A stretch of 34,281 nucleotides of DNA, from NCBI GenBank assembly GCA_051047955.1, contig JBPGPT010000036.1:124001-158281 (forward strand). Direction: 5' to 3'. The notes beneath the pieces are model-generated. The model saw only the letters and a list, made by a program, of their open reading frames with translations. It did not search any database and was not told where the DNA came from. The position numbers and the translations under genes are program-made. Of the stretch, positions 27,373 through 34,281 are shown piece by piece. Source of the stretch: Cystobasidiomycetes sp. EMM_F5. Lineage: Eukaryota. Numbering within the stretch: position 1 is the stretch's first letter; every line of letters starts with the position of its first letter.

Positions 27373-28426
27373 ATGACCACGAAGCACAAGAGGTTCAATG
27401 CAGGCAACACTCCCGACGGGGTAGTTGCAGAATATGCCAGAGAAGAGGCAGACAGTTCGGCAACAGGCAGTAGAAGAACCATGCAAATGTCTGAGCCGGA
27501 CAGCAATGACGATGAGAGCGATGCTCCGCAATCAATTAGCAAGAGTACTGCTCGGAAGACATTGAAAAGGCGAGATCAAGATGTGCAAGAGTAAGTAAGC
27601 AAGCTGCGCCGACTGGTAAAAAGACAAAGGCAAGCCTGAGCGAATGGCACTGAACTGACCTTGTATCACACATAGGGCTAGAGCTGCAAAGAAGCATAAG
27701 AGCAGGCCATCAATCGCTGCCGGCGACCTATCCTCGTCGTCGTCGACTACTGCAAGCAATAAACTCGATCCGCGGCTGTTCGCCCAAGCGAGCACTGCTG
27801 TTGCAGACATGCAGAAAAGTGTGAAGAAGCGGGAAGCTGTCGCCAGCATGCGCAAAGGTGTAGCACCCAAACATCAATTCACACGCCAGGAGGATGTAAT
27901 CATAAATGAACGTCGGGTGTTTAGGTATGTTACATGCCAACAAGCCGCCGGCGGTACGCTGACTATGCAAACACTCAACGTCTCATCAGCTCAACCGGCA
28001 GTACAACATTGGAGCAACTGTATGACCCTCCCAGTAAAGGCGCCGGCACGATTGTCAATAAAGTCACTGCCATGCCGTCGATTTCTTCGCAGAAGTTTCT
28101 AAACACTCGGCTCTATAAACCGAGAAGGAGCCCTAAGAGCGCTCAACCTTCGACAAAAAGCAAGCAACCACCCTCTCTACCGGCAACGTTGTTTGATCCG
28201 CTTTTAGACGGAAAAAAACGAGATTACAAACTACGCACAAACCGCAGAATAGCTGAAGTCGAGCGCAGGAACCGAGGAAGGCAGCAAGGTGAGTCCCGAA
28301 CGTCGATAGACCTGCCCACATTCACCTAATTAACACACATTTTCACATGTTCTAGCTACGACCGCGTACACGAAAGCACAGATTAATTCGATAACACCAG
28401 GCTGCATTCTTGGCTTCACTTCTTAG
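27373..28426 (+). CDS. Hypothetical Lys/Arg-rich protein, possibly nucleolar (Bud21/Utp16-like); 3' end uncertain
   Basis: Four exons joined by GT-AG introns. The acidic DDESDAPQSISK motif is followed by basic helices and KLDPRLF. Family resemblance is weak, and the last exon could use a later acceptor (~28500). Confidence 0.55.
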
Positions 28427-29362
28427 TGCCTCCAGTCGTTTCTCCAATCCAATCAATGTATCGTTAGAGAGCTTGATTTCTTCTTGATGTTTGTTGACAG
28501 TACCGTTTCAAATCGCGCAGAAACCTCCTGTTTTATGGCAGGCAGATTTGCTTTGTGCGAAGCATCGTGTCAAGCAGCGCTCCAACGTGCGGCGTTTGCT
28601 GATTATTCCTAGTCCGGCGGTCAGCCGTTGGCATGGAGAACGAGGCTAGCTCGCCGTCGCGTTGGCTATGTAATCCGCCGGCACATCAAATCAACGCCCG
28701 AATACTGTATCCTATTCTGTAGCTAGCTCACCACCCGGCGAAATTTGAGCGGCTCATATTGACTAGAATATTGTTTGTATTTTTATGGTCACCATATCAT
28801 GTTTTTTCCTTGCACTAGCTGAGCCACCGCTACATCATGTCTATTTGCCGCAAACTGTCTGGCTCCATCCATGATGTTTTTGGAACACCGCTGTTACCAT
28901 CATGCGGCTGCGGCGCGACTGCGACTGTAAGCAGTTGAGACACACTGCAGTACAGAACCGCTACAGTGTTCATTAGTTTAGCAATAAGACCTCGTTCTCT
29001 CAAAATGCGCTTTGGCGTGACTCTCCGCAACGAGAGACAAAAAAACGAATGCTGACCGTAATAGCAACTCATCGAATCAGTGTAGACGAGAAGCAATGGA
29101 AAAAAAAAGATGTCTTGTTACTGATTGAATATGAGACGTTCTAAAAACCGATTTTTTTCAGCAAAACGTTATTGCCAATGTTGCTGTCACAGCTGTTGTA
29201 TTGTTCCCTCAACGGATTCGGTTGTCTGAGAAAACTGACTGACATATTGCGTGCGCTCGTATCCTGCTGTTCTCACCCGCTACAGACAAATGAAGGAAGA
29301 CGTTGTGAAAGAGCCAAGAGAGTTTGAATCAGGGTCAGAGCGTCATACATTGCGGCTCCTAT

Positions 29363-29406
29363 GCGACATTTGAGTTTTGACACGGCGACATTTGAGCTTT
29401 GAGACG
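29363..29406 (+). repeat. Two-unit 22-nt tandem repeat
   Basis: GCGACATTTGAGTTTTGACACG / GCGACATTTGAGCTTTGAGACG, 20/22 identical. Confidence 0.85.
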
Positions 29407-31330
29407 GTTTTACCATTTAACAGTACCCCATAGCAATGAGACGATATTTAATCTGTTGTCAGCTCAAACAGTAGCACGCATTCTCTCCCTTAATGGCACG
29501 GCACCTCATCAGATTTGTGTTTCCGGCGCCATCCTTCTACGCTTGTGTTCTAGTATGAATCATGCTCGAGTGCGATGCTAAACTTTGTACTGGAATTTAC
29601 GCCACTATCTCACTGTCGAAGGCCGATGCGTGTTGCTACAAAGTTTACGTGACGTTGCTTAAAGTCGCAGTGCGAGAGAATTATATTCACTCTTTTATAG
29701 AAGTGTTGGACAACGGAATTGAGACAATGCAAGTGTCCTATTAAGTCCAAATTCTGAGTTGCGGACTTGGGTGGTGGTTATTTAGCTTTGCCCAAAAACC
29801 TGCAGAACGTAGCTATATAGATTTACTAGTTTCGTTATTTTCTGACCAGACATCTATAAGAGTCTTTCGTTTTGGAAACCACCTGGATCAGGCCAGGGAT
29901 GTCTATGTAGTCCGCTCTATGCTGGGTGTTTTAAACGAATTGAAGTGGAGCGCGACAATATCAGGCTGAACCACATCAACGGACCGATGTAACCTGATAG
30001 ATCAGAGACAGAAAAACAAGAAAACAGAGAAAAGCTGCCGAACATCGCCGATGACTTGTAGTCTGGTCGACGAAAATAAAAGTGCCCACCCTATTTTGCA
30101 TTCGCGAACATAGGACCCGAACTGAATTCGGTACAGATTAACATAGTCTGCGGGAACGGAAGTAGGGTGTCGTCAGTGCGGGTAATACCGAAGAGACTTA
30201 ATGTGTGATAAGGCTTCGGACTACGGAGCGCCGTAATTTGGTCGATTTGACGCATGGAGTAAGACAAGGCAGGTTTGAGTATGCATTGAAACGGAAGCTT
30301 CATGCTGTCCCAGCTGACTGTAGTTCTGCACAGGCGTTTTTACGTGAAGGTACGTCGCACATGTTTGAGCGTAAAGAACAGCTCCGTCGAATCTGAAAGG
30401 GCAAAGGCAATAAAGACAAGACTACCGACCTCCAACCCCACAGAACCAGTGCCCTCCAAGGATCTGCTGAGTGTTCCTGTTCTCATTATCAATTTAACAT
30501 CGACCTGGAATCGCAGTTCATTTTTGTCCGCGATTTTTCAAAACTACGAATGTGCACGCTGCTGCTTTTCTGCCCAAACTTTTTATGTACTGCATGCGCG
30601 CTGTCATTTTGTGAGAGATGTCGTACAGTACTACGATAGAGAATAATAAAATGATTTCGATCCACCTGAACTCTTTGCAGTGACATCGTCGAGAATAAGT
30701 GCTTTCATTTCAGGCAGTCTCAATACGCTTCAATCTTGCTCTTCAAAAGGAACACTCGAACAAGGGTAGAAAAAAGACATCAAACTGCAGTACCTCGCGA
30801 CAGACCAGACATTGGTTTTGCAGTTAACAGATCGTCTTTATTCAAGAGTACCCGCAATTACGGAATCTGCGAATACATCTTACGACACCACGCCGATACT
30901 TCCTTCTCTCAAAAGCTGCGTCTTGCTGAGATTGAGGATACTCTTCATACAAACAAATGTTCAAATCTATCACAGAATGGTCTTGTCAAGTACCGTGGGA
31001 GCGTTATTGCCTAGTGCCGAAGCTGACTATATCGCTATGAACAATCTCGTTCGGAATATTCAGGAGAGCGAAGGTGTATTCCAACGTTCTCACACTCATT
31101 CGTGCGTACAACAAATCAGCTATAGCACTCACTCGCTGAGAATAATACCAGTCGAGATGCCACGAAGCATACTACGCTGAGTTATCATTGCAGTCAACTG
31201 CTCAATGACAACACAATGACTCTATCATGAATCGACACAACAGCCAACCCGGCTGATATCTAACATCTTACCTCAGCATGTCTTCGCAGTTGGCATAGAA
31301 TCGCGCGACACTTCTGTGGGAGCGGTGAAA

Positions 31331-31489
31331 GAACAGTTTGGCTGTCAAACAAGCGTTGTTAGACTGCAAACGAATGCAATATGCGTTTCTCAGCAATATG
31401 TCAGTAACTTGCTTGCTTGCACTAAAAAATGGTGTTAGATAGTGGTCAGCTTTTGTCTTCTCATCAGTTGATCACTCCGAGCCTTAAAG
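31331..31489 (+). repeat. Diverged LTR-like repeat copy A (probable solo LTR)
   Basis: 31331-31355 matches 32024-32048 at 23/25. 31417-31489 aligns by hand to 32116-32187 at 53/73 columns. Confidence 0.75.
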
Positions 31490-32187
31490 CTGCTATCATC
31501 GAGTCACTGCCGTTGCGTGGCCGTCTTGGGGCAAATCATGGCAGTGATATTGATAGACGCTCTTCCACAGATGAGTTTCACACCAGATCTTCTGTCGCAT
31601 CACGATCCTACTGCTCGCAATGCACAGCCTCTCATTGTTTCTCGTTTTGAATAGCTACCAAAAGTCTCGAGCACTTTCCTTGTCGGCGTACCGCCACAAG
31701 TGGCATAGCTAGTAAAAACGTCATATAAGACGGTTCTGGCTGGCGCACCAAGGAGACACCAGGCAGACATGCACGAAATGAGCTGTGAAACGTCCGTTGT
31801 CAACCTTTATGGTAGTCGTTGACGAATGCTCTCTCAACCAATCCACCACTTTTCGTGATATTGAAGGTTCGAAATATGATTCGATGCGATTGGGTTCCGT
31901 ACGATGCGGGGAAAACCCTGATGCCTACCCTCATCTCTGCTCATCATTTACGCAGTTGAGAGCACATCGGCAATGTTGTCCGATCTACTGATGAGTGAAG
32001 TATAGAGGTATGTACGTCGGAACGAACAGTTTGACCGTCAAACAAGCGGAGCAAGAAGACGTCAGGTGTCAGTCAAACGCGACATGCGTTTGTCAGTAGA
32101 ACGTGAGTCATTAGTTTGCATAAAAGTCGATGTAAGTTAGCGGTTAGCTGTTGTTCTCTCATCAATTCATCAATCCAAACTTTGAAA

Positions 32188-32199
32188 GGTTATGAGCCC
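32188..32199 (+). promoter_or_regulatory. Primer binding site complementary to the anticodon arm of initiator tRNA-Met (Ty5/copia half-tRNA type)
   Basis: GGTTATGAGCCC is the reverse complement of GGGCTCATAACC in the fungal tRNAiMet anticodon stem-loop. It sits exactly between the repeat and the gag-like ORF. Confidence 0.85.
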
Positions 32200-32878
32200 C
32201 GACCTTCAAAGTAAAGATCCAATCAATATGTCCTCAAAAATTAAGATCTCCAATCTCCTTATTCCTGAACAATTCCACTTTAATGAAAGTAATCTATCAG
32301 TTTTCAGTGGAGCTTTCACCCTGCTGCTCCATACGCAAGGTTTACAATACCTCGTGGACAGTGCAGTGACTAAACCCCAAGGTGCCGACGAAAAGAATGA
32401 CAAACTCGTTCTATCAAGTCCTTGTGACGAATATCTCTGACACCGCAAAGAATATGTCGCAAAACATGACCCTGACAAAAAGCAGGCATGGTTAGCAATC
32501 AACACATTTTACAAAGACACCAACACAGCCGTTGTCATGAATTTGGCTGTTGAACACAGCATGATGCGATGGGCGGGTGGAGATAAAGATAGCTTTGATG
32601 ACTGATTATCAAGATTCCAAGGCGTAGCCAACAAACTCCTGCAAGCTGGCCTCAAATACGAGGATTGGCAATTAGCAATCATAGTACTCTCCAAGATCCC
32701 TCGCGAATATTTAAACTACAATGTCGCTGTGGACTCTCTCAAGCCATCCGAGCGGTTTTGCTCGCTGACGATTAACATTGTGAACATCACGAATATGTTT
32801 GCTACTTCTGAATTATGGGTTTATCGGCAGTCCAGCAGCTCTTATTACAGTAGATACCAACACGCTCTGTTACATTAA
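32192..32878 (+). pseudogene. Copia-type gag (Retrotran_gag_2/UBN2-like) pseudogene
   Basis: One frame read through TGA at 32438-32440 and 32603-32605 gives ...KKQAWLAINTFYKD...MRWAGGDKDSFDD*LSRFQGVANKLLQAGLKYEDWQLAIIVLSKIPREY..., the helical pattern typical of copia gag. Confidence 0.75.
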
Positions 32879-34215
32879 TTAGCTAGAGCGCGTGTTCGGA
32901 TGTGTTATTGACGATGGTCATTCAGCCTGCGTAAGTTGGATGAGATGTGACACTTCTTATGCTGATTATGTTGGTGTCATGCGATCAGGTGAAGAACCGG
33001 AGTGCGCTAACAGGACTTACAAAACGACAGACGCAGTATACTAAAGCCGGCAGACCAGATCTTTTGAACTTTGTATTGAGCTAACAGCTAAGACCAAGAT
33101 ATGACAGAAAAGGCCGTAAAAAACAGGGTGCTCTTCTTGTTCTATTCATACTCATCACACACGCTCTGAGCGCTGATAGAGAATAAATGGCACCACCAGG
33201 GTAGTAATGCAATGCGAACTAATCGATTGTGATACGTCATCCATCTCTCGGTTCATCGACGACCTAGCGGCGGGTACCCCTAGATACACAACATTGTGAG
33301 GATGGACCCCGGCATCTGTAGTGTTCTGCATGTTCTCTCCCTGGCTCGCAGACAAGATGATTCTGCTGGTAGTTGTGGCTCATTATTTTAGATTGATTCA
33401 CGCTCTATTGGTATTCGATTCGAAGCATCAAGATTTCGCAACTCATGCGTCTCAAACCTGTTATGACATATGTCCTATTCTTTCGGTCAAAACAAGTGTT
33501 TCAAGTGCATAAGAAATATTCTTAGCAGATTCACGTTATTAGCCTGAATTTGTTAGACCAGACAAACTAAGCACTTCTGACAACATTGTTTAGACTTTAT
33601 CGGATCACTTTTTATGGGATGCTTGACCATCGGACTAGTGAAATAATATCCTTGTCCGCAACTATGGCAAACTGAACACATGAGGTTGACTAAATTTTCT
33701 GGCAGAATTTCCAAATTAGGATCCTGAAACAAATGCTCCGAGTGCGGAGCGAGTTTCTAAAGAATAGACCGCATATTTTCATCTGAAAGAAGGGGCTGGG
33801 TTCACTATACTGGTCTAGACAAGAGTCTCATTCTATCGAATAAAATGTGCCAAAAAGCGCTTGAATTGTAAAATACGGCCGACCGAAGCTGTATGTATTA
33901 TTTTGATTGAGACAGCATTTTTACATTTTCGTAAAAATGTCCGTAACCCGTGATATGCACAAACTGGGCGTGAAACCAGAGCCACAGCACTCGGTGCAGA
34001 AACAACTCCAAAAGCTACAGTCATTTTTGACGAGATTGGTAGAAACTGAGATCTTGCTGTGCCAGGCATTTAAGGTTTTTTTTCGGCTGTCTGCGGGGTA
34101 TCGTTTTAGTATGGGGTTTCTTCTCACATCACACAAGTTTATCCGTGCAGAAGACTAGTCACTTTGGAACAATTAGGAAGATGTCTTCCTGATTTATGCA
34201 CTGCAGTATATTGGT

Positions 34216-34281
34216 ATGCTAAGAACCTTCAAATTCTGAGCTGATGGATTGATGAGGAGACAACAGCTGACGACTGATTTA
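34216..34281 (-). repeat. Inverted LTR-like repeat copy C with degenerate PBS, truncated by the window end
   Basis: 34224-34281 aligns to the reverse complement of ~32133-32191 at 44/59 columns. On the minus strand the repeat is followed by GGTTCTTAGCAT (8/12 to the PBS). Confidence 0.75.

Follow-up and report, generated by a model that had tools for sequence, protein, structure and literature searches.

The window, the whole stretch of DNA analysed here (34,281 nt), belongs to contig C184 of assembly G000; all contig labels below refer to this assembly. Its first 28.4 kb (1-28426, the gene region) contain ~14 genes, an approximate number obtained from Pfam matches and counting by eye. The Pfam matches were to PLC, WD40, DnaJ, glycosyltransferase, short-chain dehydrogenase, V-ATPase F, histone deacetylase and P5A ATPase, with a weak match to amidohydrolase. 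The remaining 5.9 kb (28427-34281, the tail) have no recognisable gene, and their GC content is 0.444, vs. 0.524 in the gene region. The first-pass annotation had described a gene-packed 28.4 kb followed by gene-free DNA of lower GC, and this description holds. Only one of nine tail ORFs scanned had a Pfam match, a weak one to copia gag, and scans of the tail for tRNA genes and Rfam families gave no match. The longest stop-free frame in the tail is 136 aa (shuffled median 122); in the gene region, five slices gave values of 216-436 aa. Run X1 contigs cover the gene region in part and do not reach into the tail; they give no evidence on expression. The contig ends at 34281, within an LTR; the gene-free length of 5.9 kb is therefore a minimum.

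Table 1. Features of the tail and its edge (window coordinates).
Feature	Position	Strand	Remarks
Final host transcription unit before the island	27373..28426	+	approximate; GT..AG joints 27594-27676 and ~28288-28356 in run X1 contigs
Unique AT-richer non-coding DNA	28427..30780		GC 0.452; no tRNA/Rfam match
Decayed copia RNase H relic, 3' end of old element	30802..31260	+	tblastn
Polypurine tract GTGGGAG	31316..31322	+	immediately 5' of old 3' LTR
Old 3' LTR, CG start and AG end kept	31323..31489	+	alignment
5' LTR, subfamily A, 173 bp	32015..32187	+	last base A; G in young copies
Primer-binding site GGTTATGAGCCC	32188..32199	+	adjoins 5' LTR
Truncated gag with in-frame stops	32200..32752	+	identity to C82 gag
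Unique AT-richer non-coding DNA	32753..34226		GC 0.423
Last 55 bp of young B-type LTR, clipped by contig end	34227..34281	-	

The features of the tail are listed in Table 1. A three-exon reading of the final host unit retains 7 stops, indicating that the exon model is incomplete. As the first-pass annotation had noted, the tail carries three LTR copies of one family, here assigned to Ty1/copia, in both orientations (two forward, one reverse). The RNase H relic matched aa 886-1005 of the family pol (42%, E 5e-12) and also aa 1189-1372 of P0121, and the old LTR downstream of it has 68% local identity to the copy at 32015. The polypurine tract (PPT) sequence was also found immediately 5' of the C213 LTR and of the C75 LTR of a second copia family. 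The LTR at 32015 is 92% identical to the C82 LTR and 79% to the C213 LTR. Next to it lies the primer-binding site (PBS), which we take to match the tRNA-iMet anticodon stem; C82 and the second family have the identical site. The truncated gag has 83% amino-acid identity to aa 1-190 of C82 gag, and DNA identity to C82 in this part is 93% over 740 bp. The clipped LTR is 94.5% identical to the B 3' end and has the same terminal register as C202, C214 and C154; its flank pentamer GTTCT had no partner among the 5' ends found. A young element, probably with two LTRs, starts there and accounts for the assembly break. The contig may continue through two head-to-head elements into C213/C35, as the left flank is missing on both sides. 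The three copies had been called diverged; this is true of the old one, but the other two are close to young copies elsewhere. Likewise, the term "retroelement graveyard" fits the old relics but not the young copies with open gag-pol frames, and identifiable retroelement DNA makes up only ~1.5 of the 5.9 kb. Neither unique stretch had a match elsewhere in G000 (28427..30780, among 15 scored candidates; 32753..34226, among scored candidates).

The C82 and C12 frames contain gag, protease, integrase, RT (RVT_2) and RNase H in this order. The RVT_2 match was over the cut-off, and the domains rve, RVT_2 and copia gag are present in homologues. Young copies have stop-free gag and pol frames and identical LTR ends. 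The tree of the family had no named Ty5 among its sequences; none of 31 candidate stretches was confirmed in a metagenome scan with gag as query, and ESM Atlas gave no lineage information.

TG...CA termini are usual for Ty1/copia LTR retrotransposons, although not obligatory. The LTR of this family (173 bp, with PBS and PPT directly adjoining) has the ends CG...AG, which was an unexpected result. Young copies start with CGTCAG and end with TTTGAAG, and the old copy likewise has CG...AG. These boundaries are fixed by the PPT, the PBS and five matching 5-bp target duplications (5 exact pairs from 6 left x 8 right flanks; chance expectation 0.05). The possibility that a TG...CA boundary lies concealed within the LTR was rejected, because the 12 bases 3' of the last CA recur in every young copy of a subfamily and the target duplications begin after the terminal G. 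Thus, neither joined strand ends in CA. The integrase clade has ERRIG in place of ERxNR in the helix contacting DNA ends. On sequence grounds, the family is a Ty1/copia LTR retrotransposon with non-TG...CA termini. No report of CG...AG LTR ends was found in the literature searched. Plant non-TGCA copia elements (Tos17 TG..GA, AtRE1 TA..TA, TARE1 TA..CA, TGTT, AACA) resemble the family in their short LTRs, atypical ends and intact target duplications, and integrase divergence has been suggested for the TGTT elements; however, the plant motifs described there all retain the 5' T or the 3' CA, whereas CG...AG retains neither, and the plant elements favour genic DNA whereas this family favours gene-free islands (10.1101/137141, PMC5659011).

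The second copia family has 27-41% amino-acid identity to the first and occupies DNA of the same type, among other places in C28 and C202. Its LTR ends may be TA...AA or TA...TA. Its target duplications gave no pairing (2 left, 3 right flanks), and a direct C176-C28 join is therefore not claimed.

Copies of both families together were found in ~five interstitial AT-richer islands in 18.3 Mb. Ten of 11 insertions of the first family lie no more than 3.3 kb from another one in the same contig (three in C184, three in C10, two in C16 and two in C154), so the family is not scattered evenly; even scatter is what the first-pass annotation would have held against a centromere. This clustering was reached in 0 of 100,000 random placements, even with a 0.5-Mb target. 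Old and young copies occur in the same islands. The family is confined to ORF-free gaps in searches that score best candidates only, which old relics elsewhere may escape. All LTR terminus matches (10 per terminus) are no more than 2.3 kb away from the end of a contig; for young repeats this position is partly built in, since they break short-read assemblies. Target duplications link C221-C10-C179 and C208-C16-C202, giving two islands that are flanked by gene-rich arms to the left and right; for the first of these, C221-C10-C179, the estimated length is 11-15 kb. Both ends were checked in seven contigs, none of which has two islands; C198, C202 and C219 were read at one end. None of the gypsy-type proteins tested matches an island spacer. 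In a synteny scan of relatives, SPF1-RPD3 adjacency was kept in one of 80 loci, and that locus stops short of the island side.

Composition was scanned at 91 sampled ends of large contigs, contig interiors (>95% of the genome) being left out. Among these ends, that of the window's contig has the lowest GC (0.440) and the shortest longest-ORF (136 aa). The tail has five consecutive 1-kb bins at GC 0.44-0.46; in 81 copia-free ends, one of 413 bins was at or below 0.46. GC was 0.523 in short spacers within the window and 0.466 in hand-picked introns (637 bp), and the latter value places the tail only slightly under neutral DNA. A broad GC3 trough is seen at centromeres in some yeasts, and a 5mC/RIP footprint is a feature of RNAi-proficient Cryptococcus centromeres. 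No GC3 trough was found near the islands (0.540, n=24, vs. 0.537, n=123; p=0.77). CpG is not depleted in the tail (observed/expected 1.00 vs. 1.01). CpG-biased mutation was not significant (7/22, p=0.11), and there was no sequence sign of methylation or RIP. The genome gave no PF00145 candidate, which is not proof of absence, and has three Argonaute loci. Seven contigs of GC 0.33-0.37 were rejected as AT-rich centromere candidates and taken as mitochondrial; five have organellar-type tRNA/rRNA genes and two are without match.

These sequence data suggest that the tail is probably a centromere or pericentromere, which is its best single reading. The coincidence of two families and several ages, the clustering, the interstitial islands and the lowest GC count for it; the small number of islands (~five in 18.3 Mb), the missing GC3 trough and CpG loss, and short flanks count against it. 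The proposal of a centromere or heterochromatic edge in the first-pass annotation is thus supported in part: it agrees with the clustered islands and the low GC, but gains nothing from GC3, CpG or methylation/RIP signs. The tail would form the left-hand portion of a small regional centromere, or of the pericentromeric block belonging to it, in a basidiomycete yeast that is probably a member of the Cystobasidiomycetes. One Ty1/copia family hit this island three times, at different ages. Copia elements may favour centromeric or silent chromatin as integration sites or, alternatively, may be tolerated in the islands through low recombination; old copies would decay through truncation while new ones insert alongside. 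RNAi may silence the elements, and DNA methylation probably has no role. Such repeated landings mark centromeres in other fungi; by analogy they point the same way here, and are not proof.

Ty5-like elements cluster at centromeres in Scheffersomyces stipitis (Tps5), Debaryomyces hansenii (Tdh5), Cyberlindnera sargentensis and Wickerhamomyces anomalus; as these sources describe them, the clusters resemble the islands in having intact, truncated and LTR-only copia copies in large intergenic regions (PMC2997560, PMC12711049). W. anomalus has two copia families with 28% protein identity and a common tRNA-iMet PBS and regions (same sources); both families here likewise have one PBS and the same regions, the tRNA-iMet match being our assumption. 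In contrast to these clusters, the host here is a basidiomycete without a GC3 trough, and the LTRs have CG...AG termini. Regional centromeres of Cryptococcus and Ustilago are described as ORF-free gaps to which LTR retroelements are largely restricted; the islands are likewise ORF-free and LTR-retroelement-bearing, and the 11-15 kb of the joined island is close to the 12-14 kb averages of RNAi-deficient species (PMC5866544). However, the genome here combines short islands with apparently full-length elements and three Argonaute loci, no DNA methyltransferase was detected in it, and the larger part of the island DNA is unique rather than derived from elements. Ganoderma leucocontextum GlCEN427, by its description, is a copia LTR that occurs exclusively in predicted centromeres of low GC and few genes, again in a basidiomycete; the regions concerned, identified with Hi-C, cover 30-210 kb (PMC10817607). 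No centromere paper for Cystobasidiomycetes was found in the literature searched.

The islands could instead be non-centromeric insertion hotspots, i.e. rare large intergenic or silent blocks that are favoured by, or survivable for, copia and have no kinetochore. Their small number, the missing GC3 trough and a tail GC near that of introns would fit, as would spacer DNA mostly unrelated from island to island and flanks of only 1-2 kb in several cases (the C208 flank, GC 0.535, is common to the C199 end; the C213 element lies ~1 kb from GC-rich DNA). We consider this possible but unlikely, because clustering exceeds chance even in a 0.5-Mb target space and two unrelated families of several ages occupy the same places. 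Scans of the tail and of island loci gave no tRNA gene; Pol III targeting is thus not indicated.

A subtelomere, with the chromosome end shortly past 34281, is improbable. S. cerevisiae Ty5 is described as telomere-associated (PMC4139406), the contig does end in an LTR, and the partner flank of this LTR was not found. However, telomere arrays, which the first-pass annotation had named as a counter-sign, were found only at the C2 and C229 ends and not in the tail, up to the contig end. Those ends have GC ~0.49-0.50, unlike the tail, and show no similarity to it, and the C2 end bears a gypsy element. None of the island loci scanned adjoins telomere repeats, the target duplications show two sister islands to be interstitial, and the last genes before the tail are core housekeeping genes. 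Nothing relevant on the telomere motif was found in the literature. Low recombination also allows elements to accumulate, but another recombination-suppressed region (e.g. a block linked to mating type) or an artefact of the local assembly is highly improbable, given ~five separate islands with a common pattern, no mating-type gene among the Pfam matches of the window, and target duplications whose consistency speaks against misassembly.

With the centromere reading preferred, a fuller proposal is tentative and possible rather than probable: a CG...AG copia clade with an ERRIG end-recognition helix would home to centromeric chromatin, and the ~five islands would be the centromeres of a few-chromosome Pucciniomycotina yeast. 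If the islands are centromeres, they would provide testable centromere coordinates, at the C184 end, C10, C16, C28/C154, C129 and the C176 end, and a scaffolding guide for Cystobasidiomycetes, and would add a case of short islands with Argonautes and without a detected DNA methylase. Whatever the islands are, LTRs with CG...AG ends represent a naturally occurring exception to the CA rule of LTR integration, and elements of this kind escape TG..CA-based annotation. With the matched change in the integrase, the way in which integrases read DNA ends can be tested directly.

Assembly G000 comprises 253 contigs (18.3 Mb), and the window (C184:124001-158281) stops at a contig end. GC content fell from 0.524 to 0.444 at ~28.4 kb, the point to which the last spliced unit extends; the abrupt switch from gene-dense to gene-free, lower-GC DNA described in the first-pass annotation is confirmed. 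A compositional change was found for GC but not for CpG, whose observed/expected ratio was ~1.0 on both sides of the drop. Short spacers within the window are not AT-rich (GC 0.523), but hand-picked introns had GC 0.466, indicating that the drop is genuine but modest. Pfam matches in the gene-dense part were PLC, a WD40 protein, DnaJ, a glycosyltransferase, a short-chain dehydrogenase, and V-ATPase F; an Rpd3-type deacetylase and a P5A ATPase were also present. Main segments of the P5A ATPase showed 71-75% identity to a Cyphobasidiales protein vs. 54-60% to another full-length homologue; this single gene gives a weak indication that the host is probably a Cystobasidiomycete. SPF1-RPD3 adjacency is kept in a relative at locus L155 (SPF1 identity 88%).

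No tRNA genes or Rfam matches were found in the tail, and none of its reading frames exceeds chance length. The three LTR copies in both orientations noticed earlier correspond to three insertions of one Ty1/copia family. The remaining ~4.3 kb is unique DNA of GC 0.42-0.48. C184 breaks exactly 55 bp into an LTR, and three other contigs break in the same register. A second copy of this terminal LTR variant presumably exists in a short unassembled piece; in the simplest case the element would be complete, with this copy as its 5′ LTR.

Features of the gene-free tail (window positions)
Feature	Position	Strand	Remark
22-nt tandem duplication	29363-29406		91% identical; unique part of tail
Old 3′ end, first copia family: RNase H relic	30802-31260		followed by PPT
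Old 3′ end, first copia family: LTR	31323-31489		after PPT
5′ end, first copia family: LTR	32015-32187		followed by PBS
5′ end, first copia family: gag	broken off at 32752		after PBS; whole 5′ end (LTR to gag) 93% identical to C82
Young LTR, last 55 bp	contig end	reverse	

We read 91 large-contig ends (both ends of the 41 largest contigs and nine others; contigs >10 kb have roughly 150 ends, a total estimated from contig numbering), together with 55 of ~177 smaller contigs. Among the 91, 5-kb GC was lowest at the C184 end (0.440), where the longest frame was also shorter (136 aa) than at any other; the C176 end, which carries a second copia family, ranked second on both. In the 81 ends lacking copia, a GC of 0.46 or less was seen in only 1 of 413 1-kb bins, and the first unique kb adjoining copia ends was AT-richer than other ends (n=10 vs. 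81, p=0.0003). With the contigs presumed to be mitochondrial set aside, the small contigs of lowest GC (C154, C82, C16, C10, C28) were all copia-linked.

Genome-wide pattern searches for the first-family LTR revealed each terminus, 5′ and 3′, 10 times, always near a contig end. The family is clustered: 10 of 11 insertions had a same-contig neighbor within 3.3 kb, a result matched by 0 of 100,000 random placements. Five-base target duplications connect C221-C10-C179, C208-C16-C202, and C28-C154; C154-C214 agree in four bases only. The second family (27-41% protein identity to the first, same PBS) ends at C176, C28, C129, C219, and C198, with a gag relic at C202. Its LTR (~77-79 bp; L024 on C75, L097 at the C176 end, L013, L150-L152) begins TATTAG and apparently also lacks TG...CA; its target duplications are unpaired. 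Pairing of the ten copia-bearing large-contig ends gives about five islands, only two of them joined by evidence. Short non-coding segments, 70-77% identical, are shared by island flanks (C214 start, L016:456-929; C176 end; C179 end), and may represent an island motif or what is left of a further old element. The last 55 bases of C199 match C208 957-1011 (C208 start, L018:96-1011), which implies a duplicated segment of ~950 bp that lies next to a subfamily B insertion and contains a short coiled-coil-like frame; C199 may be the true neighbor of the C208 island.

A few interstitial blocks, gene-free and AT-richer, have repeatedly received insertions of several ages from two unrelated families. 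Copia elements may be targeted to centromeric chromatin, or may survive there. On sequence grounds the tail is, on balance, more likely than not centromeric or pericentromeric. The edge-of-centromere reading gained from the genome-wide clustering and lost from two observations: no GC3 trough was found near the islands, and several islands have short flanks only. Candidacy is reasonable but unproven. The same two observations leave some room for a non-centromeric insertion hotspot, which we consider rather unlikely. A subtelomere is improbable; telomere arrays (TTAGGG mixed with TTAGTAGGG-type units) were seen only at the C2 (L078) and C229 (L029) ends, plus three single motif matches, and one of fourteen RVT_1 matches elsewhere (mostly gypsy) adjoins the C2 array. 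Any other explanation is very improbable. At C2 a gypsy pol frame runs straight into the array, as if the element had been cut and then healed by telomere addition. A telomere-like motif at C231 (L111:5219-5231), where two long gypsy-like frames join, may be due to chance. C240 (L119) carries an rDNA unit with a 5S gene within the repeat.

The genome has three Argonaute loci; a search for C5 methylase candidates found none, and no CpG footprint was found. Any silencing is therefore more likely to involve RNAi and putative H3K9 methylation. In the portions of the literature consulted, copia clusters at fungal centromeres are already known (PMC2997560, PMC12711049, PMC10817607), and the C184 cluster, if centromeric, would be a further case; fungal regional centromeres (PMC5866544) and S. 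cerevisiae Ty5 at telomeres (PMC4139406) were also compared. Literature listings searched for centromere papers on Cystobasidiomycetes yielded none.

The view of the tail as a retroelement graveyard holds only in part, because C82 and C12 keep stop-free gag (297 aa) and pol (1007 aa) frames; the first family is not dead. A second subfamily of it occurs in C56, C114, C169, and C213. The LTR (173 bp) starts CGTCAG and finishes TTTGAAG. Its boundaries were set by three independent markers: target duplications (five exact pairs vs. 0.05 expected), the PPT directly 5′ of the first C, and the PBS directly 3′ of the last G. Subfamilies A and B (77% identity) share CG...AG ends, as does the old window copy; the copy at 32015 finishes AA and a truncated C10 copy begins AG. 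Because the two termini make up an imperfect inverted repeat, G would be the last base of each joined strand. In plants only the first T is invariable among the four LTR terminal bases, according to the LTR_retriever preprint (10.1101/137141), and AA..CA ends were added by PMC5659011. No CG..AG element was found in the literature searched.

ERRIG was present in 9 of 74 aligned integrase cores (2 of 76 sequences were dropped as unaligned), and ERxNR at the same place in 52. Eight of the nine formed one clade (SH-aLRT 96) in a quick tree whose alignment included the motif itself. In HIV-1 integrase, Asn155, Lys156, and Lys159 of the corresponding helix touch the LTR end (PMC2794180), and these positions presumably map onto the ERRIG/ERxNR site. 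We hypothesize that ERRIG is linked to CG...AG ends; the link stays at this level because thirteen further sequences likewise deviate from NR and, among the ERRIG sequences, LTR ends were read only for this family. The gene-free feature of the tail is real and was correctly seen; the firmest new point of our analysis is the CG...AG copia family.
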